From positions 11,046 through 75,045 of the forward strand of contig JBDRRP010000086.1 of assembly GCA_043825735.1 (NCBI GenBank): DNA of 64,000 nucleotides, given 5' to 3'. Positions 1,629 to 64,000 of this stretch are shown in pieces. Under the pieces are notes generated by a model. That model did not search any database. It had not been told where the DNA came from and saw nothing but the letters and a program-made list of their open reading frames with translations. This stretch comes from Pseudomonadota bacterium. Its GTDB lineage: Bacteria; Desulfobacterota; Desulfobacteria; Desulfobacterales; JBDRRP01. Within the stretch, counting starts at the first letter, position 1. Each line of letters begins with the position of its first letter. The position numbers were made by a program, and so were the translations under genes.

Positions 1629-4600
1629 ATGATTCCTCTCGTCGTTCGATCCCATTTTTCCCTCATGTGGGGCACCGCTTCGCCGGAGGCGGTGTGCCGC
1701 ACGGCCCGGGCGCACGGCTACACCCGTCTGGCGCTCACCGATACGGACAATCTTTACGGGTTGTGGCCCTTTTTGGCGGCCTGCCGGCGCAATGGCATTG
1801 GGCCGGTGGTGGGGGCCGAAGTGACGGATCCGGCTACCGACGATCGGGCCGTCTGTCTGGTGGAAAATGCCGCCGGGTACCGGAACCTGTGCCGCCTCAT
1901 CACCCGCCGCCATTGCGACGGACAGTTTTGCCTTCTTGGGGATCTGCCGGCGCTGGCTGATGGGTTGACGGTGCTGACCCGTTCGGCCGCGGCGCTCTGT
2001 GCCTGGCACGACGCCGGCGTCTTCGTGGCGGCGGCAGCCCCCAGGAAACCCACCGGGGCGGCGCTGATCCTGAAGCGGCTGGCCCGGGAGCGCGGGCTCC
2101 CGTTTGCGGCGGTGCCGGGCAGTTTTTTTCTGGAACCTGCGGATCTGCCCGTTCACCGGATGCTCCGAGCGATTGATCTTAACACCACCTTGTCGCGTCT
2201 GGGGCCAGTCGATACGGCACCCCCGGATGCCTGGTTGGCACCGCCAGGGGTTTACGCCGAGCGTTTTGCCGTATGGCCCGAGGCGGTTTCCGAAACGGCG
2301 GCGCTGGCCGAGCGGCTCGCTTTTGACGGCCCTTCCCGGGATCTGGTCCTGCCCCCGTGGCGCAGTGCCGCCGGCCGTTGCGCCGACGAGGCGCTTCGCC
2401 CGGCCGCCTATGCCGGCGCCCGGCGCCGTTATGGGCCGGATCTGGCTGAAAACGTGGTGGACCGCCTTGAGCACGAGCTCGCCATCATCGCCCAAATGGG
2501 GTTTTCATCCTACTTTCTCGTGGTGCGAGACATCGTGGCGCGCTCGCCGCGAACCTGCGGCCGGGGCAGCGGCGCGGCATCCCTGGTGGCCTACTGCCTG
2601 GAAATCACCAACGTGTGCCCGGTGAAGCACAACCTTTACTTCGAGCGGTTTCTCAACCCGGGCCGCACCGATCCGCCCGACATCGACGTGGATTTCGCCT
2701 GGGACGAGCGCGACGCGGTCCAGGCCTCGGTGCTGGCTCAGTACCCCGGACATGCCGCCATGGTCTGCAATCACGTGGGCTTCAAACCCCGGATGGCGGT
2801 CCGGGAAGTGGCAAAGGTCTACGGCCTGACGGACGCCGAGATCGGCCGGGTATCCAAACGGTTGCCCTGGTTCTGGCATTCGGAGGAAGACGGCGACGAT
2901 CTTCTTGGGGCCATCCGGGGCTTGCCGGTGATGCGCGGGGTGGATTTTCCGCCGCCGTGGCCGGACATCATGGCCATGGCCCAGCGGATTGTGGGTATTC
3001 CCCGCCACCTGTCGGTGCACTCCGGCGGGGTGATCATCACCCCGGCGCCGGTGGATACCTATGTGCCGGTGGAGATGGCGCCCAAGGGGGTGCCCATCAT
3101 CCAGTGGGAAAAGGACGGCACCGAAACCGCCGGACTGGTGAAAATCGATCTGTTGGGAAACCGGAGTCTTGGCGTGATCCGGGACGCACTGGCTAATATT
3201 CGTGATAACGGCTCAAAGATCGACGAGGGGTGCTGGGAGCCCGAGAATGACGCGGCCACCCAGCAGGCCGTCGCCGCCGGCCGCACCATGGGCTGTTTTT
3301 ACATCGAAAGCCCGGCCACGCGGCTTTTACAGCAGAAGGCGCGGGTGGGAGATTTCGAGCACCTGGTCATCCACAGCAGCATCATCCGGCCGGCGGCCAA
3401 TGAATTCATCCGGGAGTATATCCGCCGCCTGCACGGCGGCCCTTGGGAGCCGATCCACCCGCTGCTGGATGACGTGCTGCGCGAGACCTACGGCATCATG
3501 GTCTACCAGGAGGACGTCTCCCGGGCGGCGGTGGCGGTGGCGGGTTTTTCAGCGGCCGATGCCGACGGACTGCGCAAGGTGATGGCCAAAAAGGACAAGG
3601 GCCGGCGCCTGACGGACTACCGGGCGCAGTTTATTGCCGGCGCCCGGGAAAAGGGACTTTCCGAGGAGGAGATCGAGCGGATCTGGGCGATGATGATGAG
3701 CTTTAGCGGCTACAGCTTCTGCAAACCCCACAGCGCCAGCTACGCCCGGGTTTCCTTCCAGGCGGCCTATCTCAAAACCCATTTCCCGGCCGCGTTCATG
3801 GCCGCGGTGATCAGCAACCAGGGCGGGTTCTACAGCGCCTTTGCGTACGTGTCCGAGGCCCGGCGCATGGGCGTCACCGTGCTGCCCCCGCATGTCAACG
3901 AAAGCCGGACCCACTGGAAGGGCAGCGCCAGCGCCATGCGGGTGGGGTGGGTGTCGCTGAAGCATTTGGGAGCGGCCACCCGAGAGCGCATCCGGCGCGC
4001 GCGGCCGTTTACCGGGCTTTCCGATTTTCTTCGACGCATAGGGCCGGATGAGACCGAGGCGCGGAGCCTGATCCACGCCGGGGCCTTTGACGGGCTGCAC
4101 CCCGGCGTGAGCCGGGCCCAGCTGCTCTGGGAACTATCCGCTTGGCTGCGGCGGCGCCAGCACGCCGCGGCAGGCGCGCTCTTTGGCGATCCCGGCGCCG
4201 TGCCCCGGCCGGCGCTGCCTCCCGAGCCGGAAATGGAACGTCTGCGCCAGGAGTTTCGGGTGCTGGGGTTTTTGTGCGACCGCCACCCCATGGTGCTGTT
4301 CCGGCAAGCACTGGGGCGCCGGCGGGTGGTGACGGCCGAGTGCCTGCCGTCACTGGTAGGCCGTGAGGTGCAGGTGGCCGGGATGCTGATAACGGGAAAG
4401 TCGGTCTACACGAAAAAAGGCGATCCCATGCAGTTTCTGACCTTCGAAGACGAGACCGGACTCGTGGAGGCGGTGTTTTTCCCGGAGGTCTACCGGCGCT
4501 ACTGCGCCATCATGTCGCACCACCAGCCCTACGTGATCAGCGGGCAGGTGGTCTCCGATTTCGGCGCGGTCACGCTCACCGCCAGCCGGGCCGTGGCGTT

Positions 4601-4646
4601 GGAGCGGCCGCCTTCGTCGGGTGATCAGCTCAAAGCGGCCGGATGA
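1629..4646 (+). CDS. dnaE2: DNA polymerase III alpha subunit, error-prone DnaE2 type
   Basis: Degenerate PHP start (RSHFS, LALTD), GRGSGAASLV, FERFLNP, catalytic PDIDVDF, HLSVHSGG, KIDLLG, YSFCKPHS, and a C-terminal OB fold (FLTFEDETG). Adjacent to the ImuB-like gene. Confidence 0.9.
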   Translation: MIPLVVRSHFSLMWGTASPEAVCRTARAHGYTRLALTDTDNLYGLWPFLAACRRNGIGPVVGAEVTDPATDDRAVCLVENAAGYRNLCRLITRRHCDGQFCLLGDLPALADGLTVLTRSAAALCAWHDAGVFVAAAAPRKPTGAALILKRLARERGLPFAAVPGSFFLEPADLPVHRMLRAIDLNTTLSRLGPVDTAPPDAWLAPPGVYAERFAVWPEAVSETAALAERLAFDGPSRDLVLPPWRSAAGRCADEALRPAAYAGARRRYGPDLAENVVDRLEHELAIIAQMGFSSYFLVVRDIVARSPRTCGRGSGAASLVAYCLEITNVCPVKHNLYFERFLNPGRTDPPDIDVDFAWDERDAVQASVLAQYPGHAAMVCNHVGFKPRMAVREVAKVYGLTDAEIGRVSKRLPWFWHSEEDGDDLLGAIRGLPVMRGVDFPPPWPDIMAMAQRIVGIPRHLSVHSGGVIITPAPVDTYVPVEMAPKGVPIIQWEKDGTETAGLVKIDLLGNRSLGVIRDALANIRDNGSKIDEGCWEPENDAATQQAVAAGRTMGCFYIESPATRLLQQKARVGDFEHLVIHSSIIRPAANEFIREYIRRLHGGPWEPIHPLLDDVLRETYGIMVYQEDVSRAAVAVAGFSAADADGLRKVMAKKDKGRRLTDYRAQFIAGAREKGLSEEEIERIWAMMMSFSGYSFCKPHSASYARVSFQAAYLKTHFPAAFMAAVISNQGGFYSAFAYVSEARRMGVTVLPPHVNESRTHWKGSASAMRVGWVSLKHLGAATRERIRRARPFTGLSDFLRRIGPDETEARSLIHAGAFDGLHPGVSRAQLLWELSAWLRRRQHAAAGALFGDPGAVPRPALPPEPEMERLRQEFRVLGFLCDRHPMVLFRQALGRRRVVTAECLPSLVGREVQVAGMLITGKSVYTKKGDPMQFLTFEDETGLVEAVFFPEVYRRYCAIMSHHQPYVISGQVVSDFGAVTLTASRAVALERPPSSGDQLKAAG

Positions 4647-4817
4647 CCAGCCGCGAAAAACGCTTATTTGCGGGTTTATATGTGCGCACTTGACACTAAC
4701 ACAAATAAAGGCAATCGTTTTCATGAATGAACGGCGCCGATTGATCCGGAAGGATCGCGTATCGTGCCTGCTGTCTGAAGGGCTGCCGGAGGAATGATTC
4801 GATAAAGTGGTGTCCAT

Positions 4818-6365
4818 TTGAAAACAAAAAAACCAAATAACGGGCTTGAGCAACTGGAGATGGCGTTAAGGGACGGGTCTCCGAAGGCCAAGGCTTTTAT
4901 AGAGATCTTTGACAACATCTTCGGATCCGTTCGTGAATCGCTGCTCGTGCTTGATCATCAGCTGCAAATCGTCAAGGCCAACCGGTCTTTCTGCCGGACC
5001 TTCAACGTAACGCCCGCTGAAGCAGAGGGCACCCTGATATACCATCTTGGCAACTGCCAGTGGGACATCCCCCGGCTCAGAGAATTACTCGAAAACATTC
5101 TTCCGCAGAATTCAGAGTTGACTGACTTTGACGTGGAGCAGAACTTCGAAGGTATCGGTCGGAAGATCATGCATTTGAATGCCAGGCGCATCTACAATGA
5201 AGAAAACCAAACGCAGTTGATCCTTCTGGCCATCGAGGATGTGACAGAGCGTGAATACTATAAACGGGATCTTGAAAAGATCGTTGAAAAGCGAACGGCT
5301 GAACTCACCGCTGCCAGGGTTGAGGCGGAAATCAGCAAGCATCGGGCCGAAACCTCCCTTGAGGAAATACAGTGGTTAAAAGAGAAGCTTGAAGCCGAAA
5401 GGGCCTATCTCAAGGAAGAGATCAAGACGGAGTACAACCACGAGAACATCATCGGTCGAAGCGATGCCATCAACTATGTGTTTTACAAGATCGAGCAAAT
5501 TGCCGCCACCGATACCAATGTTCTGGTTCTTGGAGAAACCGGCACCGGCAAAGAGTTGGTGGCCCGGGCGATTCACGGATTGAGCCTGCGCAAGAACCGG
5601 GTATTGGTTAAAATGAACTGTGCCGCGCTGCCGGCAACCCTCATCGAAAGCGAACTGTTCGGCCATGAGAAAGGCGCCTTTACCGGCGCCCAATCCAGGA
5701 GATTGGGGCGATTCGAGATTGCCAACGGGGCGACCCTGTTTTTGGATGAGATCGGTGAACTACCCTTGGATTTGCAGCCCAAGCTGCTCCAGGTGATACA
5801 AAACGGCGAATTTGAGCGTCTGGGAAGCTCCTTCACCATTAAAACCGATGTGCGCATCATTGCCGCCACCAACCGTAATCTGGAGGCGGAGGTCAGAAAG
5901 GGCCGATTTCGCGAGGATCTCTGGTACCGGCTCAATATTTTTCCGATTACGATGCCGCCACTCCGGGATCGCAAGGAAGATATTTCACTGTTGGTCAATT
6001 TCTTTGTTGATAAGATCTCTAAGCGGCTGGGCAAAACGATCGAGGTGATCCCAGCGAGTCTGATGGATTCACTGCAGCAATATCACTGGCCCGGCAACAT
6101 CCGCGAACTGGAAAACGTTCTCGAACGGGCAGTAATCAATTCATCCGGGCCCAAACTGCGCCTGGTGGATGAGCTGAAACAATCGCGCAAGAACCATCCA
6201 GCGGCATCGCGTACGCTGGCCGACATCGAGCGGGAATATATCCTTCGGGTGCTCGATCAGGTGAACTGGAAAGTGAGCGGCACAAACAGCGCGGCCGAAA
6301 TCCTGGGCCTTGACCGCAGCACGCTGCGCGCTCGCATGACCAAGCTCAATATTCGAAAAGACTGA
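4818..6365 (+). CDS. PAS-domain sigma54-dependent transcriptional activator (NtrC/Fis family)
   Basis: N-terminal PAS and coiled coil, Walker [42 protein letters not shown]-terminal HTH. Start could be ATG 4860. Confidence 0.93.
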
Positions 6366-7832: not shown

Positions 7833-8147
7833 ATGAATTCGAGACGTAGGCTTATTGGCTATCTGACCCTGATTCTGTTTGTCGCCGCTATTGTGGCCTG
7901 CGGATCGACAGCCAAGCAGGAAGGCACAGGGGAATATGTTGACGATTCGGTCATCACGACCAAGGTTAAATCTTTGCTGGCTGCTGATGATTTTCTCAAG
8001 TCATTTCAAGTCGGTGTTGAAACTTTCAAGGGTAATGTCCAACTGAGCGGGTTCGTTAACTCTCAGCAGGCGGTTGAAAAAGCGGGTGAAATCTCACGTA
8101 GCGTCAAGGGAGTAAAATCCGTAAAGAACGACCTGATCGTGAAATAG
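7833..8147 (+). CDS. BON-domain lipoprotein (OsmY-like)
   Basis: AAGGAG RBS, lipobox IVAC, DDSVITTKVKS, GNVQLSGFV, GVKSVKNDL. Confidence 0.9.
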   Translation: MNSRRRLIGYLTLILFVAAIVACGSTAKQEGTGEYVDDSVITTKVKSLLAADDFLKSFQVGVETFKGNVQLSGFVNSQQAVEKAGEISRSVKGVKSVKNDLIVK

Positions 8148-8252
8148 GCGGGTGTTGGATTTCAGGGGGCCTGTAGTGCCCCCGGAAAGAGAGCCGACAT
8201 GAAGCGGGTCTTAACAATATCGGTCGACTAATTCAGAAGAAAGAGGTTCGCC

Positions 8253-8594
8253 ATGGAAAACAACAGCAGTGAGAGCATTTCGGCTGCACTGAAGATTCTT
8301 GAGGAGGCAGCCAAGCAGAAGAAGGACGAGTTGAAAAAGATCATGTCAAATAAGTACAAGAATCTGTCCAGCCTGTTCATGGAAAACGAAAGCAGTCTTA
8401 AGGAATCGTTGAGCACCGCCAAAGATCATGTGTTCGATGCGGCAACTCATGCCAAAGAGGCCGGCGTCGAAAAGGTCAGTGATATGGCTCGTGAGGTGGA
8501 CAACGGTGTGCATCAGAGTCCGTGGCCCTTCATCGCAGGATCTGCGATGTTCGGTGTGTTACTCGGCTTCATCCTGGGCCGGAGTAACAAGTAG
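8253..8594 (+). CDS. YqjD/ElaB (DUF883) family membrane-anchored protein
   Basis: Helical N-terminus followed by the VHQSPW...GVLLGFILGR tail anchor typical of DUF883. Confidence 0.82.
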   Translation: MENNSSESISAALKILEEAAKQKKDELKKIMSNKYKNLSSLFMENESSLKESLSTAKDHVFDAATHAKEAGVEKVSDMAREVDNGVHQSPWPFIAGSAMFGVLLGFILGRSNK

Positions 8595-8615
8595 CCCCGT
8601 CCAACAGGAGGACAT

Positions 8616-8999
8616 ATGTTCGCGAATTTGACCAAGGGCCTTCTTGCTGCAATTGCGATCAAGCAGATAGACAACTGCCGGCGTTTGTCGATTCAACTGC
8701 TTAAGATCGAGGCCGTGACGGGCTATTTGCATGGAGTACAGATGGCCCGCTTGACCGTAATCGGGCTGATGCGGATGGGGCTCTTAATCGGTTTCATCGG
8801 TTTTGGGATGTTGTTATTGCATGCGGGTCTGTTCATTTTGCTGCCGTGGTCGGTGGAAACCAAGGCGGTTCTCGGTATTTTTCTTGGGTTGGCCTACATG
8901 ACCATTGGTAGTATTGTGCTTCATTTGTCCGTGGATGAGAAACGGTGGATGAAGAAATCAGGTGTCGCGGAGATGCTGGAAAAAGTAACCACTCAATGA
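8616..8999 (+). CDS. Two-TM membrane protein (possibly YqjE-like)
   Basis: AGGAGG RBS, two hydrophobic helices, position directly after the DUF883 gene. Confidence 0.65.
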   Translation: MFANLTKGLLAAIAIKQIDNCRRLSIQLLKIEAVTGYLHGVQMARLTVIGLMRMGLLIGFIGFGMLLLHAGLFILLPWSVETKAVLGIFLGLAYMTIGSIVLHLSVDEKRWMKKSGVAEMLEKVTTQ

Positions 9000-56265: not shown

Positions 56266-56631
56266 TCAGCGGCGCCGGTTGTGAATCACCAGGATGACAT
56301 AGATGACAACGTTAAGCAGGAGCACCGCACCCCCCAGCAGGATCTGGTGAGACCGCGTGAGCCCCTCGGGGTAGACGACGGGGTTGAGGAGGTGTTCGAT
56401 GAAGCCGCCGCCGTAGTATTCCAGTCCAGCCTTGATGCGGAAGTGGTTTTCAAGATGGGTCAGCGGGCAGCGCCAGCCGGCGCATTCCACCGCGCCGGCC
56501 CAGGCGACCGCCGGCAGGTGGAGCCAGGCGGTGCGGGGGCGGCGCATCACCAGCAGACCGCCGAAAACGGCATAGACGATGAACGCCAGGTGAAGCACCA
56601 GCACGGCGTCGGCCAGGAGCCGGTAGCCCAT
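56266..56631 (-). CDS. DUF2784 membrane protein
   Basis: LADAVLVLHLAFI, WLHLPA..W, CPLTHLEN, GFIEH. Confidence 0.88.
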   Translation of the reverse strand: MGYRLLADAVLVLHLAFIVYAVFGGLLVMRRPRTAWLHLPAVAWAGAVECAGWRCPLTHLENHFRIKAGLEYYGGGFIEHLLNPVVYPEGLTRSHQILLGGAVLLLNVVIYVILVIHNRRR

Positions 56632-56644
56632 TGCGCTCACCTGA

Positions 56645-57205
56645 TCAGTTCCGACCGGCAATGACCATGGGCGCGGCCACGCCCTCGGCGTGATCGCGCC
56701 CAAACAGCATCGCCACCAGTTCGAGGGCGAACTCGAGGGCCGTCCCCGGACCGCGGCTGGTGGCGCAGCGGCCGTCTACGACCACCCTGGCGGTGTCGGC
56801 TCTTTCCGGCGAAAGCTGATCCATGAAATTGGGATGGCCGGTGGCGCGAGTGCCTTCCAGCAGTCCGTGGGCTTCCAGTACTACTGCCGGCGCAGCGCAG
56901 ATGGCGCCATAATAGCGGTTTTCGTCTTTTTGCCGCCGGAGCAGGGTTTTCAGCTCGAGGGAATCCCGCAGGTGTTCGGCGCCGGGGATGCCGCCGGGAA
57001 GAACGATGAGATCGAAGGTGTCATCCATGCACTCAGCGATCAGCCGGTCGGCCACGATTCTGACCCCGCGAGAGGCGGTGATCTGAAGGTCCCCCACCGA
57101 TGCGACAACGACATCGGCCCCGGCACGGCGCAAGACATCGATGATGCAGACCGCCTCGATCTCTTCGGTGCCGTCGGCGATGGGTACGAGTACTTTGGGT
57201 GTCAT
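56645..57205 (-). CDS. DJ-1/YajL (ThiJ) family protein
   Basis: GTEEIEAV..DVLRRAG, LPGG, AICAAP, TSRGPGTA. Confidence 0.92.
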   Translation of the reverse strand: MTPKVLVPIADGTEEIEAVCIIDVLRRAGADVVVASVGDLQITASRGVRIVADRLIAECMDDTFDLIVLPGGIPGAEHLRDSLELKTLLRRQKDENRYYGAICAAPAVVLEAHGLLEGTRATGHPNFMDQLSPERADTARVVVDGRCATSRGPGTALEFALELVAMLFGRDHAEGVAAPMVIAGRN

Positions 57206-57507: not shown

Positions 57508-59202
57508 TTAAAACGGCAGCCCTCCCTTTTTGAGAAGTCCCCCGCCAATGTTCAGGCGTTTTTCGATTTCCGCCTGAATGCCGTCAAATCCGGCAAGCTG
57601 CCCCTTTGCCTGGGCGCTCTGACCCGATACGTCGGCGGTGATGCGCTGGTTGAGCTGCGCTTTCAGGCTGGCCGTCTGGTCGGCGACGACATTGCTGAGC
57701 GACTGCGAGAGCATCTGGTCCATATCCGAGCGGATTGAGACGGTGTAGTCGGACAGGGTGCCTCGGGCATCGGCGGTTGCACTGAATTTGGAGACCGAGG
57801 CCAGCGCCGAGGACAGCGCTTTGGCCAGGATGTCGCCCTCGGCCGGTTTGCCTGTGCTGATGGCGACATCGGCCATACTGGCCGTGGCCGTCGTTTTGAT
57901 GGCGTCGTCCATCATGTCCGCCGTGAAGTCAATGTCGGCCATCGCTTTTGAAAGCATCACCGGAAGACCGGCGGTGCCGGGTATTTGATAATCGGTGAGT
58001 TTGAGACCGCTGATCTTGCCGGAAAGATCCATTTTGGTTTTGCCCGCCGTTGCCAGATCCAGCAGGCCGTTGAGCCCCAGATGCGTGATACCCCCTACGT
58101 CCCGACCGTTGAAGGCCATGGTCATGGGCGCACCCACCCTGGCGGGCTGGTTGGAGATGTTTTTGACGGTGCCATCGATGGTGCCTTTAGCCAGTTCCAT
58201 GCTGGCGGCAGTGTTTTTCACCCAGACAAACACACCGGATCCGCCGTCTGCCGGCGGGGCGCTATCCTGATCTTTGGATGTTTTGCCCTTCGCAGGGCCC
58301 TTGAACCGTTCGTACCAGTCGATGGCCTTGGTGACCCACCCGCAATAGGCATCACCGAAAAGGGCCTTGCTCATGTTTTTCAGCCCGTCGCCGGAAAGGG
58401 CGTACTTGCTGGCCAGGCGGGAGACATCCGCTGCGATCTGGCTGCTCGTTTTCTGGATGTCCTCCTGCAGCCGGCTGACTTCCTGCTGCACCTGCTGCTG
58501 GGCGCTGTTGAGGCTTTGGAGGTCTTTTTCAATGTCTTTCTGAATGCTTTGGATCTCATTGGGCGCGCCCAGCAGGGCGCCGAAACCGGCCTTTGCGCCG
58601 CCACCGGTCAACTTCTCGATGCGCTGCCGATACTGGTCGAAGGTTTGCTGGTCGGGCAGGGTATCGAGCAGTTTCTGCTGCCGGTCCTTTTCGGCGGTGA
58701 TCCGGGCGCTGAGTTGCTGCACGTATTCCGAGGAGAGCAGTTTTTCCTTGCTCAGGATGTCTTTGACATCGGGCATGGAAAGGGGCGGCAGCGACATCCC
58801 CTTGCAGCCGCCGGCTTCTTTTGCCGGTGGCGGGGCGACCCCCGGCACGGCGCCGGACGCTTTTCGGGGGGTATCGAGGCGGATGCCGGTCATGGCCATC
58901 TGTTCCACGATGACTTCCTTTTTCAGCAGCGGCATCACGTCCAGGGCAAAGGAGATCTGCTTGACAGAAACGGCGTTGGTCATGGGCGCGGCGGGGTCGG
59001 TGACGTCAAGACCCGAGAGCGTCAGCCCCAGGGGAAAAAACGATAAATCGGCGGCGGCCAGATCCACCCGTGCCCCGACGGCCTTCGTGCCGTATTTTTC
59101 GATCTGGTTTTCGATGATGCCGTCGATCATGAAAACGAAGACGACCAGCAATAGCGCCAGAATGCCGGTGGCAAAGGCCAGAACGCGAACGATAGATTTC
59201 AT
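57508..59202 (-). CDS. TIGR03545-like (AsmA-related) membrane-anchored protein
   Basis: N-terminal TM, GARVDL..ADLS, DP..PMTN, central coiled coil, beta-rich C-terminal half. Confidence 0.75.
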   Translation of the reverse strand: MKSIVRVLAFATGILALLLVVFVFMIDGIIENQIEKYGTKAVGARVDLAAADLSFFPLGLTLSGLDVTDPAAPMTNAVSVKQISFALDVMPLLKKEVIVEQMAMTGIRLDTPRKASGAVPGVAPPPAKEAGGCKGMSLPPLSMPDVKDILSKEKLLSSEYVQQLSARITAEKDRQQKLLDTLPDQQTFDQYRQRIEKLTGGGAKAGFGALLGAPNEIQSIQKDIEKDLQSLNSAQQQVQQEVSRLQEDIQKTSSQIAADVSRLASKYALSGDGLKNMSKALFGDAYCGWVTKAIDWYERFKGPAKGKTSKDQDSAPPADGGSGVFVWVKNTAASMELAKGTIDGTVKNISNQPARVGAPMTMAFNGRDVGGITHLGLNGLLDLATAGKTKMDLSGKISGLKLTDYQIPGTAGLPVMLSKAMADIDFTADMMDDAIKTTATASMADVAISTGKPAEGDILAKALSSALASVSKFSATADARGTLSDYTVSIRSDMDQMLSQSLSNVVADQTASLKAQLNQRITADVSGQSAQAKGQLAGFDGIQAEIEKRLNIGGGLLKKGGLPF

Positions 59203-59548
59203 GCAAGGACTCCTATTGAGCGGTTTCGGAATTGACCGCCCGCGGGAACGGGTGGATGAATCAAACTATGGTACAGACGCGTGCTTCAGTCAAACTCGTT
59301 GTATTATTTTTCGTCGGTTTTAAACATTCAGCAAATTGTGGCCGTGGCCACCGGAAGGCGTTGGAACAGACCGTTTGTATGCGCCGCCAGCATTCATGGA
59401 CCCGGTCCACGATTATCATCTTGACAGGAGCGTTCCATACTTGGATCATGTTCAGTGACGATGGGGCACTGGCCGGTGATTTTCGCGTGGCGTGTCCCCC
59501 GGGGCGACATATCCACGGGCTCATATCCGTTACGGCGATCACTTTGAT

Positions 59549-60409
59549 ATGACCGCCGCGGGAAAAAATACCGAGAACCCAATGGGAAAAATGGCCATGC
59601 GCCGTGATGCCGGTCGTCACCAGTCCCTGCTGCTTCAAGTCGCCCGTGATGCGGCGTCCCAGTCTCTTTTGCTGGAGCATCTCGAATCTCTCGCGACCAT
59701 CGATGACGGTATTTTGCAAAAGCGCGTGCTCAAAGAGGTGATCCGCAGCTATGTCTCCCTGGAGCGGCGCGTTGACGCCCTGCTGAAGAACACCCTGCCC
59801 GCCAGCGTTGCCGAGGCCATCAAATTCGAAGGACGCTTTGTGCCGCGCCGGTATCGGTGCTCCATTCTGTTTACGGATTTCGTGGGATTCACCCATATTT
59901 GCGAAGCCGTTTCCAGCGATACCACCGTCGAGATGCTGGGCACTGTGTTCACCGCATTCGATGATATCGTCTCCCGGCATCACGGCACCAAGATAAAAAC
60001 CATCGGAGATGCGTACATGGCCGTCTTCGGCGCGCCCGAAAGCCGTCCGGACCATGCGGTCTGCGCCATCCGGGCCGCTCGGGACATGCTCTCGTTCATG
60101 GCTGGGTTTAACCGGAACGCCGCGCATCCGTTTCACATGCGTGCGGGCATTCACAGCGGCGAAGTGACCGCCGGCGTGGTGGGGCGCGAGCGCATGCAGT
60201 TTGATGTCTTCGGCGACAATGTGAACATCGCCGCCCGATTCGAGGCGGCGGGCGCCCCGGATCGCATCAATGTTTCGGAGGATACTCATTTGGCTGCGCA
60301 ATCTGATTTTGTATTTGAAGCCAGAGGGGAGATTGCCCTTAAGAACAAAGGGCGGATGAGGGCCTATTTCGTGGCGGAGGAACACCGCCCGGACAGCGGC
60401 ACATCCTAA
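59549..60409 (+). CDS. Soluble class III adenylate cyclase
   Basis: ILFTDFVGFT, KIKTIGDAYM, RAGIHSG, FDVFGDNVNIAARFE. The Lys/Asp pair indicates ATP specificity. No TM. Start uncertain (59492, 59549 or 59582). Confidence 0.9.
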   Translation: MTAAGKNTENPMGKMAMRRDAGRHQSLLLQVARDAASQSLLLEHLESLATIDDGILQKRVLKEVIRSYVSLERRVDALLKNTLPASVAEAIKFEGRFVPRRYRCSILFTDFVGFTHICEAVSSDTTVEMLGTVFTAFDDIVSRHHGTKIKTIGDAYMAVFGAPESRPDHAVCAIRAARDMLSFMAGFNRNAAHPFHMRAGIHSGEVTAGVVGRERMQFDVFGDNVNIAARFEAAGAPDRINVSEDTHLAAQSDFVFEARGEIALKNKGRMRAYFVAEEHRPDSGTS

Positions 60410-60419
60410 GGGAGGGGGC

Positions 60420-61229
60420 ATGGATAATGGCGAACGGTACGCACGCCCGATTCCGGTGGCCGAGGACATCTTCTGGGTCGGCAGCCGGGACGGCGGAGAC
60501 GGGTTTACCTGCAACCCCTACCTTGTCATCTCCGGCGACGAGGCGGTGCTCATCGACAGCGGCAGTCGAACGGATTTTGCCGTGGTGATGATGCGCATCC
60601 TCCAGGCCGGTATCGATCCCCGCCAGATCGTGGCGTTGATTTACCACCATTACGATCCGGATCTGTGCGGGTCCATGGCCAACTTCATCGACATGTGCGA
60701 CAATCCCGAATTGAAGGTCGTCTCCGAGCACCGAAACAACGTGTTCATTTCCTACTATATCCCGCGCGACTACTATCACCTGCTGCGTTCGGTGGAGGAT
60801 TACGACCACTGTTTCAGCCTTGGGACGCGCCGTCTTCAATTCGTGCCCACGCCGTACTCCCACAGTCCCGGGAGTTTTGTGACCTATGATCAACGGACTC
60901 GGACCCTGTTTTCGAGCGATCTATTCGGCAGTTTCGGAACCGCCGGCGACCTGTTCATGAAGTTGTCGCCCGCGTGCCATACCTGCAGCGATTTCGACCA
61001 CTGCCCCCAGCAGCGCCCGGTGTGTCCGCTCAAGATGCTCGCCCGGTTTCACCAGCAGGTAATGCCCTGTCAGAAGGCCCTGCAATATGCCATCGCCCAG
61101 TTGCGGCGGCTGGACATCGCATGCATCGCCCCGCAGCACGGACCGATCATCGCCGAACGGCGCGACATCGAGCATGTCATGACGCGCCTGGAACAACTGG
61201 AAGCAGTGGGCATTGACGGCATTTGTTGA
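60420..61229 (+). CDS. MBL-fold oxygen-binding di-iron (ODP-like) protein
   Basis: CNPYL, LIDSG, HHYDPDLC, PYSHSPG, LFSSDLFG, FHQ..MP, IAPQHG; no flavodoxin domain; GGAGG RBS. Confidence 0.85.
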   Translation: MDNGERYARPIPVAEDIFWVGSRDGGDGFTCNPYLVISGDEAVLIDSGSRTDFAVVMMRILQAGIDPRQIVALIYHHYDPDLCGSMANFIDMCDNPELKVVSEHRNNVFISYYIPRDYYHLLRSVEDYDHCFSLGTRRLQFVPTPYSHSPGSFVTYDQRTRTLFSSDLFGSFGTAGDLFMKLSPACHTCSDFDHCPQQRPVCPLKMLARFHQQVMPCQKALQYAIAQLRRLDIACIAPQHGPIIAERRDIEHVMTRLEQLEAVGIDGIC

Positions 61230-62177
61230 ATGAAAAATGGAGGCATGATCATGGCATTGAAGCCTTATCAGCAGAAAATTCTCGAACTCTACGAAGATCA
61301 GGAGCGCCAGCTGGCCATGCTTTACAGCTGCTTCGGCCGGCAGTTTCCAAATGACAACGCCTTCTGGGGGCAGCTGGTGCGGGAAGAGGAAATGCACGCC
61401 CGGCTCATTTCCAAACTGAACGCGGCTGTAGACACGGGGGCGTTGCTGTTTGACGAGGGAAAGGTGAAAACCTATACCCTGTCTGCCATGATCGAGCGTC
61501 TGGACGTATTGCGCCGCAAGGCCGAGGCCGGGCAAATGGACCGCCGGGGGGCTTTGGCCCAGGCCCTGGATCTTGAGTCGGCCCTCATCGAAAAGGGGGT
61601 GTTCACCCATTTCGAAGCCCTCAACGACAAGGCCCGCGTCGTCTTGAAGCGCCTCAACGGTGAAACACTCGATCATGTGGCCCGGGTGCGGCGCATGCGC
61701 GACGCGGACGCCGACGCGCCGAGGGCATCTGTCCTGTCGGGGGATCGGTCACCGGCTGGCCAGGCCGCCACTGCCGTGCTCGAGTGGACCCCGGCGCTGT
61801 CGGTGAACGACGATCGGCTGGACAGACAGCACCAGCTGCTGTTTGCCATTATCAACGATCTGGCCGACCTCCGGGCCAAGGGCGGTGAGCGCCGCGGCAT
61901 CATCGACCTCATCACCCGGATGATCGGGTTTTCGGACGCGCATTTTGGTTGCGAAGATGAAGTGATGCTCGACGCCGATTTTCCTTTGTTTGCCAGCCAC
62001 CGGCGGGAGCACCAGCAGTTCATGGAACGGGTGGGTCAGTTTTTGGAAGGGTACCAGCAGCGCACCCAGGATTTGACCGGCGAAATGATGGCGTTTCTCC
62101 AGGCGTGGTGGCTCAACCACACGGCCGAGTCGGACCGGCGCTACGCCAGGTGGATCCAGAAACGTCAATCCGATTAG
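61230..62177 (+). CDS. Ferritin/rubrerythrin-like domain fused to bacteriohemerythrin
   Basis: N-terminus: E..LY, EEEMH, LE, ETLDH. C-terminus: W...LSV...LDRQH, HFGCE, HRREH, NHTAESD. Start may be 61245 or 61251. Confidence 0.85.
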   Translation: MKNGGMIMALKPYQQKILELYEDQERQLAMLYSCFGRQFPNDNAFWGQLVREEEMHARLISKLNAAVDTGALLFDEGKVKTYTLSAMIERLDVLRRKAEAGQMDRRGALAQALDLESALIEKGVFTHFEALNDKARVVLKRLNGETLDHVARVRRMRDADADAPRASVLSGDRSPAGQAATAVLEWTPALSVNDDRLDRQHQLLFAIINDLADLRAKGGERRGIIDLITRMIGFSDAHFGCEDEVMLDADFPLFASHRREHQQFMERVGQFLEGYQQRTQDLTGEMMAFLQAWWLNHTAESDRRYARWIQKRQSD

Positions 62178-64000
62178 ACGCGGCCCCCCGCCTCAGCATT
62201 TATAAGCATCCAGTGACCGATCGATTCGCTGACGCGCAGCCGCTGGCCTCCCAGCGACAGCGCCGGCACCGGGCCCATCAAAGCATTGGTGACGAAAACA
62301 CCGTCGGCTTCGAAAAGATCTTCTGGCATCACCGGCCGCGTTTCGACGGCCATCCCTTTTGACAAAAGATGGTCGCAGGCGATCTTCTCCATAATTCCGG
62401 GAAGCACCGCCGCCGAAGCGGGGCGGATGATGCGTCTCCCCCGGACGATGAGGATGTTGCCGGTGTTGGTCTCTGAAACCGTACCGCCGGGGTTCAAGAT
62501 AACGGCTTCGTCGGCCTCGTTGGCGGCGGCCCACTGGCCGGCCAGGTGGTAGTAAAGGTAGTTGAGGGTCTTGTGGTTGGCCAGGGGGGTTTGCCGGGGT
62601 TCGGGGTAGAGCGCCAGACGAAGGCCCTTCAACGGCGTGGTCTCCAGCCGGTGGCGGTAGGCGCGGGCCGTGACGATGATCCGGTGGTCGAAAGGGGCGC
62701 AGCTCCGGCTGCCCCGGGTGGCCAGCAGCTTTACTGCCGCCACGGTATCGGCAAGGCCGTTTCTTTGCACGACTTCACCGATGATGTCCTCCCAGGTGAC
62801 GTCCGGCAGCGGTGATGGAAACAGCGCCTGCCATGCCGCATAAAACCGCTGCAGGTGATCGCCGAGGTGGCGGATGCGGCCGCGTTCGACGCGGATGGTT
62901 TCAAAAAACCCGTGTCCGTACTGCAGACCCAGATCGCTGATCAAAACGGCGGCGGTATCCGCGGGCTTGAATATGCCCGAGTCCCATGCCCACGCGCCGG
63001 CCGCCGGTTCGGCGCCCGCGTGCCCGCCGAAGACTTCCATCAGCGTGCGGCCTTTGTGAAGCGTTTCGTCGAACTCGTCGGCCGGGTCCGAGTCGAAGAC
63101 GATGCCGCCGCCCACCGAGAAGGTGATGCGGTCGTGACTGATCGTCGCGGTGCGGATGGCGATGGAAAGATCCATGGTGTCGTGAAAGCTCACATAGCCG
63201 ATGGCGCCGGTGTAGATGTGACGCCGGGTCGGCTCCATCTCGTCGATGATTTCCATGGACCGCACCTTGGGGCACCCGGTGATGGAGCCGCCGGGGAAGG
63301 TCGCCCGCAGGATGTCCACGCTGTCGTACTGGGGATCGCGCCGGCCTTCCACCACCGAAACCAGGTGCCAGACGTTTTTATAAGCTTCCACGCGCTTGTG
63401 CTCGGCCACGCGCACCGACCCGCCAACGCAGACCTTGCCGATATCGTTTCTGAGAAGATCCACGATCATGGACAGTTCGGCATCGTCTTTTTTACTGGCG
63501 GCCAGTTCTTCCCTGAGCGCCGCGTCGGACGCGGCCGTTTCCCCGCGGGGTCGGGTGCCCTTGATGGGCCGGGTTTCCACCCGCTCGCCTTCCCGCTGGA
63601 TGAAGCGCTCCGGTGATGTGGACACGATATGGTGGTCGCCGGCGTTGACGTAGGCAAAAAACGGGGCCGGGTTTTTACGGTACAGCGCGGCAAACAAAGC
63701 CCACGGGTCCCCTGAAAAATCCATCTGAAACCGCTGGCTCATGTTGACCTGATAGACATGGCCTGAGGCGATGTATTCACGGATGCGGCGGACGGCGTCG
63801 AGGTAGTCGCCGCGCTCAAAATTGGACCGAAAACCGCGGCGGTCTCCGGAAAAACCGCCGGGTGCCGGCGGCGGGCTTGTCAGGCGGTCGCGGACGGCTG
63901 CCATTTCGGCGCGCACGGCGTCATCGTCGTCGGTGTCGAACCGGGGGCGCAGCATGCGGGTTTTGCTCTCCCGGATGTCGTGGACGATGACAACGGACGG
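62174..64000 (-). CDS. pabB: Aminodeoxychorismate synthase component I fused to a class IV aminotransferase/ADC lyase (5' end outside the window)
   Basis: YQVNMSQR, SPERF, TRPIKGTRPR, MIVDLLRND, FPGGSITGCPK, then YGHGFFET, HKTLNY, VLPGI. The frame is open to the window edge. Confidence 0.92.
   Translation of the reverse strand, partial: PSVVIVHDIRESKTRMLRPRFDTDDDDAVRAEMAAVRDRLTSPPPAPGGFSGDRRGFRSNFERGDYLDAVRRIREYIASGHVYQVNMSQRFQMDFSGDPWALFAALYRKNPAPFFAYVNAGDHHIVSTSPERFIQREGERVETRPIKGTRPRGETAASDAALREELAASKKDDAELSMIVDLLRNDIGKVCVGGSVRVAEHKRVEAYKNVWHLVSVVEGRRDPQYDSVDILRATFPGGSITGCPKVRSMEIIDEMEPTRRHIYTGAIGYVSFHDTMDLSIAIRTATISHDRITFSVGGGIVFDSDPADEFDETLHKGRTLMEVFGGHAGAEPAAGAWAWDSGIFKPADTAAVLISDLGLQYGHGFFETIRVERGRIRHLGDHLQRFYAAWQALFPSPLPDVTWEDIIGEVVQRNGLADTVAAVKLLATRGSRSCAPFDHRIIVTARAYRHRLETTPLKGLRLALYPEPRQTPLANHKTLNYLYYHLAGQWAAANEADEAVILNPGGTVSETNTGNILIVRGRRIIRPASAAVLPGIMEKIACDHLLSKGMAVETRPVMPEDLFEADGVFVTNALMGPVPALSLGGQRLRVSESIGHWMLINAEAGGRV

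Follow-up and report, generated by a model that had tools for sequence, protein, structure and literature searches.

The closest described relatives of the system considered here are the ODP proteins, which reportedly (Muok et al. 2019) work together with sensor-less chemoreceptors in Treponema denticola (TDE2498/TDE2496) and Thermotoga maritima. The locus itself lies in a 64,000-nucleotide stretch, hereafter the window, of contig JBDRRP010000086.1 (positions 11,046 to 75,045 of the forward strand; assembly GCA_043825735.1, a Pseudomonadota bacterium placed by GTDB in the Desulfobacterales). It comprises three co-directional genes on the + strand, which encode in order an adenylate cyclase, an ODP-family di-iron protein and a fusion of a ferritin-like domain with a bacteriohemerythrin. 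We propose, at a probability of about 0.62, that the first two form a two-component-like system of a sensor protein and a receiver-tagged enzyme, in which the ODP would control the cyclase via a short module at the N-terminus of the latter. In three papers (PMC7319448, PMC7666581, PMC6978683), ODP is described as binding iron and O2, as interacting in a conformation-dependent manner with a sensor-less chemoreceptor and acting as a trans sensor of O2/Fe(II), and as having been recruited into other signal-transduction pathways; the summary of the founding ODP paper given in one of them (PMC7319448) places ODPs in operons with various signal-transduction genes. The principle of ODP as a trans sensor, encoded in operons with signalling proteins and fused to them, is published.

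Our literature search found no paper on an ODP-cyclase system, which agrees with the earlier note on this DNA, made by a model from the sequence, in that it knew of no characterised system of this composition; the founding 2019 ODP paper and its supplements lay outside the search and may cover part of what follows. With that proviso, the searchable literature did not yield the cyclase as the dominant partner in a Desulfobacterota-centred clade, the shared receiver-like module, an invariant four-cysteine (Cys4) motif in the ODP, or the ferritin-like/hemerythrin accessory protein. The Cys4 motif and the module also go beyond the features that the note had listed.

As in the ODP-chemoreceptor systems, a stand-alone di-iron protein of family PF19583 is encoded here beside a signalling protein without a sensor of its own. 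The differences are that the output is a predicted class IIIa adenylate cyclase and not a methyl-accepting chemotaxis protein, that the partners in the window's clade carry a dedicated 38-residue module, and that a ferritin-like third partner, here joined to a hemerythrin, is added. A further parallel is provided by the stand-alone H-NOX sensors, which are encoded beside histidine kinases or diguanylate cyclases: in both cases the gene for a small, separate gas- or redox-binding metalloprotein that acts, or in the window would act, in trans stands beside a sensor-less output, and one sensor family is combined with several output classes. In contrast to H-NOX, the predicted cofactor in the window is a di-iron centre (plus possibly the Cys4 site) rather than haem, the fold is unrelated, and the outputs include adenylate cyclase and PP2C. 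We know of no conserved docking tag that is common to all H-NOX partners.

The ODP gene (60420..61229, +) encodes 269 aa of MBL (metallo-beta-lactamase) fold and matches PF19583 over the whole profile (positions 1-194 of 194; E 3.2e-51, 174.4 bits against a cut-off of 27.2), its match to the generic MBL model PF00753 being weaker (E 1.7e-14, 54.6 bits). The nearest PDB entries are the solved ODPs 6qrq/6qwo (E 1.2e-15) and 6qnm/6r9n (E 7e-13), followed by the flavodiiron proteins (FDPs). All 81 relatives retain the columns that we take from the literature to bind iron, H77-x-D79-x-D81, H148, D167 and H240; the HHYDPD, SHS, SSD and QHG of the window align to the HQDPD, LHS/MHS, SGD and QHG of 6qrq and 6qnm. 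An identity as an FDP was considered and rejected: the 269 aa correspond to the MBL core only, the NorV models reach 32-38 bits against cut-offs of 635-711, and the metal motif is HxDxDL. The MBL-fold di-iron domain is what the ODP has in common with FDPs such as FprA/rubredoxin:oxygen oxidoreductase and NorV; it differs from them in having no flavodoxin domain, in carrying HxDxD where FDPs carry HxExDH, and in standing in a signalling context rather than one of electron transfer. A second FDP-like gene is found elsewhere in the source genome (a 403-aa frame on C40).

What sets the window's clade apart from the solved ODPs, to which similarity is in any case low, is an insertion bearing the motif C186-x2-C189-x5-C195-x6-C202-P (ODP aa 186-202; 60975..61025, +). 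In the alignment it is invariant in all 81 relatives; both solved ODPs are devoid of Cys there, and the HMMER alignment is gapped in this stretch. Two other cysteines, C31 and C83, are kept in 80 of the 81. The Cys4 motif is a candidate Fe-S, Fe(Cys)4 or Zn site, and the C-x2-C-x5-C spacing is reminiscent of [4Fe-4S] motifs in other protein families. If it holds a metal, it would add a fourth centre to the three predicted di-iron sites that had been ascribed to the two partners of the cyclase, a count that is reasonable at the level of motifs, the ODP, ferritin-like and hemerythrin ligand sets all being present.

The cyclase gene (59549..60409, +) matches PF00211 (Guanylate_cyc) with an E of 2.2e-52, over aa 122-295 of its longest frame, and the Pfam/NCBIfam scan gave no other family at E<=0.01. 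On inspection, its N-terminus holds no hydrophobic stretch sufficient for a membrane helix, and the description of a cyclase with neither a sensor domain nor a transmembrane segment is upheld. Its closest solved relatives are the mammalian membrane adenylate cyclases (tmACs) and the mycobacterial Rv1625c-type Cya (E 7e-57 to 6e-42), and because of these neighbours we place it in class IIIa. Six residues are invariant in 48 orthologues and align to the matching residues in the C1/C2 domains of AC8 and AC5. From the class III cyclase literature we take D110 and D154 to be metal ligands, K150 and D219 to specify ATP, and N226 and R230 to stabilise the transition state; the ATP-specifying Lys/Asp pair claimed at the outset is thus found conserved, and the set as a whole is the predicted signature of a homodimeric, ATP-specific enzyme.

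Directly before the catalytic domain lies a helical linker, RVDALLKNTLPASVAEAIK (59768..59824, +), whose LLKNTLPxxVA core is nearly invariant among the 48 orthologues (L78, L79, N81, L83, P84, V87 and A88 strictly so). It aligns to the helix that precedes C2 of AC8 and AC5, the alignment covering AC8 from residue 930, and corresponds to the pre-catalytic helix of class IIIa cyclases for which the literature uses the name cyclase transducer element. The LLxNxLPxxVA helix and the K/D ATP specificity are thus features held in common with the tmACs and Rv1625c, whereas the window cyclase has no membrane anchor, HAMP or other upstream sensor, and in their place has the 38-residue ODP-associated module.

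The pairing of cyclase and ODP is conserved and often involves translational coupling. A scan of 185,579 species (one genome each) returned 342 ODP relatives, and the best 80 were analysed as loci. By tblastn, 50 of the 80 have a class III cyclase in the locus, and in 36 of these a Pfam-confirmed cyclase stands immediately upstream of the ODP gene on the same strand; gaps in the 47 tabulated cyclase-ODP pairs are mostly -4 to +30 bp, 4-bp overlaps being frequent. Such recurrence, at 50 of the 80 related loci, goes far beyond what chance would produce, and the neighbourhood search that the earlier note had proposed, with non-conservation as the outcome that would count against it, came out in favour of the linkage. 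Among the other 30 loci, a PP2C/SpoIIE protein (17), a HisKA+HATPase kinase (5) or a GGDEF protein (4) is encoded directly downstream of the ODP, and the remaining 4 are cut by a contig end or unclear, so that a minimal signalling output adjoins the ODP in 76 of 80 loci. Closer to home, 7 of 40 genomes of the same order have an ODP orthologue (44-70% identity): the full triad is present in one (G018) and a cyclase-ODP pair without the third gene in another (G027), three pair the ODP with SpoIIE/PP2C and two with HisKA-HATPase.

The enzymes that accompany these ODPs are minimal, their output domain beginning after 60-120 residues, and when the N-termini were set side by side a common motif was revealed. 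In the window it forms a 38-residue N-terminal module of the cyclase (aa 36-73 counted from ATG 59549; 59654..59767, +), identified by profile searches. A hidden Markov model (HMM) was trained on this segment from 34 cyclases only, with none of the transducer helix included, and was used to search all 2,573 six-frame open reading frames (ORFs) of the 80 loci. After the cyclases, it recovered the PP2C proteins in 17 of 17 cases (E 5.7e-8 to 6e-4) and the GGDEF proteins in 4 of 4, together with a truncated ORF in one locus (L115; E 1.7e-6); one of the five kinases fell below 1e-3 and the other four lay at 0.018 to 3.5, the top unrelated ORF being at E 4.1. An alignment of 75 modules has zero gaps, and module positions A14, D18, L26, L29 and Y33 are nearly invariant.

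The converse test gave a similar picture. In the 6.8-Mb source genome the module occurs in this cyclase only (E 3e-12 among 55,192 ORF pieces, with nothing else at E<=10). In 401 sampled genomes of the phylum the module profile matches ten, once in each, and an ODP gene adjoins the match in all ten; seven of these are cyclase-type, two kinase-type and one has an unnamed output. Among 1.84 billion representative proteins there are 62 module matches at E<=1e-3, many of them short fragments. Family scans of 26 of these (all 22 of at least 150 aa and 4 shorter ones) identified PP2C in 8, histidine kinase in 4, cyclase in 3, GGDEF in 2, a PLD-like domain in 1, FliK in 1 (probably a chance match) and an ODP fragment in 1, with no family in 6.

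Fusions complete the argument. Of 457 long proteins with an ODP domain at E<=1e-15, 120 are among the matches listed, and these are mostly fusions to REC+GGDEF or GGDEF (33-40% identity). Three of the 120 are ODP-HisKA-HATPase fusions (43% identity); they are the only ones with the Cys4 motif, and their ODP domain is followed at once by the second half of the module. From the co-location results and these kinase fusions it follows that Cys4-type ODPs and the module travel together, whether as neighbours or fused, and the module is our candidate for an ODP-docking and transduction element. The reasoning that an ODP acts here as a trans sensor is strengthened accordingly by three observations: ODP paralogues beside minimal PP2C, histidine kinase and GGDEF enzymes, the N-terminal module common to these, and the ODP-kinase fusions.

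The third gene (61251..62177, +; the longest ORF runs from 61230) encodes a predicted two-domain protein, a four-helix bundle of ferritin-like (rubrerythrin-like) type followed by a bacteriohemerythrin. The second domain (aa 184-309; 61779..62156, +) is clear: it matches bacteriohemerythrin NF033749 with 102.8 bits against a cut-off of 84 and TIGR02481 with 97.6 bits, and its full H/HxxxE/HxxxH/HxxxxD set (H201, H238/E242, H257/H261, H297/D302) is nearly invariant among homologues. Structures of bacteriohemerythrins and of the hemerythrin domain of the Desulfovibrio chemoreceptor DcrH match at E of about 1e-9 (DcrH-Hr at 9e-9), with TM 0.80 to 4xpw. The likeness to DcrH and to hemerythrin-GGDEF proteins extends to the occurrence of a hemerythrin of an anaerobe in a signalling context. 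Here, in contrast, the hemerythrin is fused to a ferritin-like domain and not to an output domain, and any signalling would therefore have to pass through protein-protein contacts.

The N-terminal domain (61251..61745, +) is of ferritin-like di-iron-carboxylate type according to its model and structural alignment. Modelled alone from an alignment of 28 relatives, it reached a predicted local distance difference test (pLDDT) value of 91.9, and VIA-align superposed 143 of 149 residues on TM1526 (1vjx), a ferritin-like di-iron-carboxylate protein, with Z 15.9 and a root-mean-square deviation of 2.5; all the listed VIA-align matches are ferritin-like or related four-helix-bundle proteins, and the fold assignment is made on the strength of this result. 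Foldseek, with the full gene 3 model and with the domain model, gave no match at E<=0.001 and weak ferritin-like matches only, and sequence and profile searches of the PDB with gene 3 gave nothing significant for this domain (symerythrin at E 0.32). PF02915 (Rubrerythrin) is matched by 8 of 10 close homologues (best 5.4e-6), and some stand-alone relatives exceed its 22.8-bit cut-off. E18, Y25, E46, H49, E109, E114, T139 and H142 are invariant in the 28 sequences, down to 15% identity, and the candidate di-iron set is E18, E46-x-x-H49, E109, E114 and H142; E138 of the fourth helix is not invariant. The protein has no rubredoxin domain. We name the domain ferritin-like or rubrerythrin-like rather than ferritin or rubrerythrin, and of the ferritin-hemerythrin fusion of the earlier note the hemerythrin half holds as stated, while the other half is ferritin-like by fold and no ferritin.

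Under the reading we favour, the ODP, with its di-iron site and Cys4 metal site, would be a stand-alone cytoplasmic sensor of O2 and/or of the Fe(II)/redox state, and the cyclase would be regulated solely through its 38-residue helical module and the transducer helix. The ODP would dock on the module of the dimeric cyclase depending on its metal and oxygenation state; docking would alter the packing of the helical stalk and, via the transducer helix, switch the synthesis of cyclic AMP (cAMP). The product could be read by some of the many cyclic-nucleotide-binding (cNMP-binding) proteins of the genome, in which 11 class III cyclase matches and 26 cNMP-binding matches point to a rich cAMP network able to read such a signal. 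The third protein, as an accessory specific to the cyclase version, would most likely supply a second O2, peroxide or iron input, or act as a redox partner that resets the ODP. That the proteins bind each other, what they sense, in which direction activity changes and what the third protein and the Cys4 site contribute are our inferences.

Several results weigh against this reading or limit its reach. Complex prediction, which had been suggested as a check, gave a pass for two cyclase chains with one ODP, albeit a weak one that returned no interface: the score was 0.36 against 0.04 for the best control, with at least 85% of contacts agreeing between runs and a partner pLDDT of at least 85. The mark concerned is reached by 116 of 157 solved complexes and by 2 of 215 mismatched pairs, and scores of 0.60 or below are found for 18 of the 157 solved complexes and for both passing mismatches. 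The roles of ligands in the ODP and the cyclase come from alignment and the literature and not from a bound-metal structure, and from sequence alone the signal would be compatible with O2, Fe(II), nitric oxide (NO), peroxide or redox state. None of the 120 listed of the 457 long ODP proteins is an ODP-cyclase fusion, for which reason the Rosetta-stone support is limited to histidine kinase and GGDEF outputs. A maximum-likelihood tree speaks for the reading, in that the ODPs cluster by output type: those with non-cyclase partners form one group (SH-aLRT 96), and the cyclase label changes twice, against 23.9 times in shuffles. The tree is a quick one of related rows, however, and such statistics overstate their independence. 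The N-terminal 180 aa of gene 3 have no Pfam match of their own, PF02915 not being reached even at E<=1. Finally, the ferritin-like gene is absent from 19 of the 50 cyclase-type loci (some of them at contig ends) and from G027, the nearest but one relative, and the triad is therefore not obligatory.

This last point bears on the rival that survives best, which we consider rather unlikely: cyclase and ODP would be a real sensor pair, and the third gene would lie beside them without being related to them, its product binding O2 or handling iron on its own and taking no part in the signalling. Besides its absences, the gene is fixed in neither position nor strand: it may follow the ODP, precede the cyclase or lie on the other strand. 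The hemerythrin fusion is rare and confined to near relatives of the window; apart from the window and its closest relative, only about ten clusters in 5.8 billion proteins show it. What such a passenger leaves unaccounted for is its distribution. An iterated HMM search finds ferritin-like homologues, mostly stand-alone proteins of some 150-170 aa, in 32 of the 80 loci, 31 of them cyclase-type and the other (L058) cut on its upstream side, and none in the PP2C, kinase or GGDEF loci of the 80. The gene persists across Desulfobacterales, Syntrophales, Desulfobulbales and Riflebacteria-type genomes despite rearrangement, which is typical of functional coupling and argues for a tie of the ferritin-like protein to the cyclase version. 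Gene 3 is single-copy in the source genome, and in 3 Syntrophaceae-type loci a separate hemerythrin gene stands just upstream of the cyclase, recruited independently of the fusion in the window. The three-gene system of the earlier note reduces to a conserved two-gene cyclase-ODP core, its third partner being kept, in stand-alone ferritin-like form, at 32 of the 80 loci. Two ORFs of 788 and 908 aa that include the ferritin-like domain (L081 and L082) matched no Pfam family and were dropped as probably over-extended.

Alternatively, and in our view quite improbably, the locus might be an operon for the detoxification of oxidative stress, in which the ODP would reduce O2/NO in the manner of an FDP, the ferritin-like domain would act on peroxide like a rubrerythrin, the hemerythrin would buffer O2, and the cyclase would be merely co-transcribed or regulated by something else. 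Rubrerythrin-like and hemerythrin proteins are a typical O2 defence of anaerobes, the ODP is homologous to the catalytic di-iron domain of FDPs, the Cys4 motif could serve electron entry, and a DJ-1/PfpI gene lies 2.3 kb upstream. Yet the ODP, at 269 aa, is an MBL core without the FDP flavodoxin domain, and the ferritin-like protein is without a rubredoxin domain. Detoxification would also leave unexplained the minimal signalling enzyme beside the ODP in 76 of 80 loci, the module common to the outputs and ODP-adjacent in all ten module-bearing genomes, and the ODP-kinase fusions, and the loci of PP2C, histidine kinase and GGDEF type have no ferritin-like gene at all. That the ODP is instead an MBL-fold cAMP phosphodiesterase forming a synthesis-degradation pair with the cyclase is very improbable, for although some cyclic-nucleotide phosphodiesterases have this fold (PF00753 is matched at E 1.7e-14), an operon of cyclase and phosphodiesterase would be logical and ODPs also stand beside GGDEF enzymes, the metal motif is the H-x-D-x-D-L of the solved O2-binding ODPs and not the H-x-H-x-D-H of hydrolases, the ODP family scores 174 bits against 54.6 for the generic MBL model, and PP2C and histidine-kinase partners with a shared module fit poorly.

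Returning to the sensor and its receiver-tagged enzyme, the recurrence of sensor and docking helix with other signalling enzymes suggests a portable route from oxygen or iron status to cAMP in anaerobes. We speculate further, with more doubt than confidence, that the Cys4 ODP clade, with a di-iron O2 site and possibly an Fe-S site labile to O2 or NO, signals through a portable 38-residue receiver helix on at least five unrelated outputs (cyclase, PP2C, histidine kinase, diguanylate cyclase and PLD-like), a one-sensor, one-tag architecture that would so far have gone unrecognised, and that in the cyclase version with the ferritin-like protein up to four metal centres set cAMP as an oxygen/iron alarm in strict anaerobes. 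The PLD-like case is a 286-aa protein (P0297) with the module before a PLDc_2 domain, which may represent a fifth output class of the sensor system.

How strict anaerobes perceive oxygen and pass this on to second-messenger networks is poorly understood, and almost nothing is known of the control of the many minimal class III cyclases in Desulfobacterota; the source genome, that of a sulfate reducer, carries dsrAB, consistent with the anaerobic host assumed in the earlier note. If the proposed system is real, it would provide a directly testable input (O2, Fe or redox state via the ODP) for a defined source of cAMP, a short docking module that predicts the ODP partner in any genome, and an extension of the ODP paradigm beyond chemotaxis to cAMP, cyclic di-GMP (c-di-GMP), phosphorelay and Ser/Thr-phosphatase signalling. 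Mutagenesis, and possibly the construction of O2-responsive synthetic switches, could start from the module and the Cys4 site.

With regard to the layout of the locus, the ORFs on the + strand are 59492/59549-60409, 60420-61229 and 61230-62177, a GTG opening the longer frame of the first gene at 59492. Counted from ATG 59549, conservation of the cyclase begins only at about residue 50, and its orthologues are some 260-270 aa long; for these reasons a start at ATG 59591 (272 aa) is likelier than one at 59549. The ODP start, ATG 60420, has GGGAGG immediately 5' of it, and the third gene most likely begins at ATG 61251, because 9 of 9 homologues begin at the equivalent Met and GGAGG lies 7 nt upstream of it. 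Of the gaps of 10 and 0 bp reported before, the first is correct, whereas the second is true for the longest ORF only and is most likely 21 bp. The neighbours on both sides lie in the opposite orientation, a gene for a TIGR03545/AsmA-like protein upstream and a convergent PabB-PabC fusion downstream, and for this reason the three genes form a unit of their own. A promoter-like site, TTGACA-17-GATCAT, lies upstream of the cyclase (59421..59449, +) and matches the consensus at 10 of 12 positions; in the promoter/terminator scan such sites were no commoner than in shuffled sequence (2 found against 1.4), and it serves as a pointer only.

The downstream gene (62174-63955, -) combines a Chorismate_bind domain (aminodeoxychorismate synthase component I, E 5e-92) with a class IV aminotransferase/ADC-lyase-like domain (E 2e-48), and runs, at its stop, 4 bp into the end of gene 3. 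Upstream, at 56266-57205 (-) and 57508-59202 (-), are encoded a DJ-1/PfpI family protein, a DUF2784 membrane protein and the TIGR03545/AsmA-like protein. The DJ-1/PfpI gene could relate to oxidative stress; the relatives showed no conserved link between it and the operon. In the closest relative (L032; G018:C74) a 7TMR-DISM/PAS histidine kinase (2511-4949) is encoded upstream of the triad and a response-regulator receiver protein (7972-8733) downstream of it; the window has neither.

Other loci of the set differ in their surroundings as well. In the PP2C- and kinase-paired loci (L034-L038 in the alignment) the ODP lies upstream of its partner instead of downstream, and these ODPs carry a C-terminal tail of 15-25 residues after VGIDG that the cyclase-paired ODPs do not have. 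In two loci of the kinase type (L036 and L037, in G017 and G014) the kinase, REC-fused in one and followed by a separate REC gene in the other, is succeeded by an MshE-like T2SSE ATPase with an MshEN domain, which points to a possible pilus or secretion output. Three cyclase-ODP loci from other families of the phylum (L127, L128 and L136, in G359, G188 and G365) have a GGDEF gene directly upstream of the cyclase, an arrangement that hints at cross-talk between cAMP and c-di-GMP at one locus.

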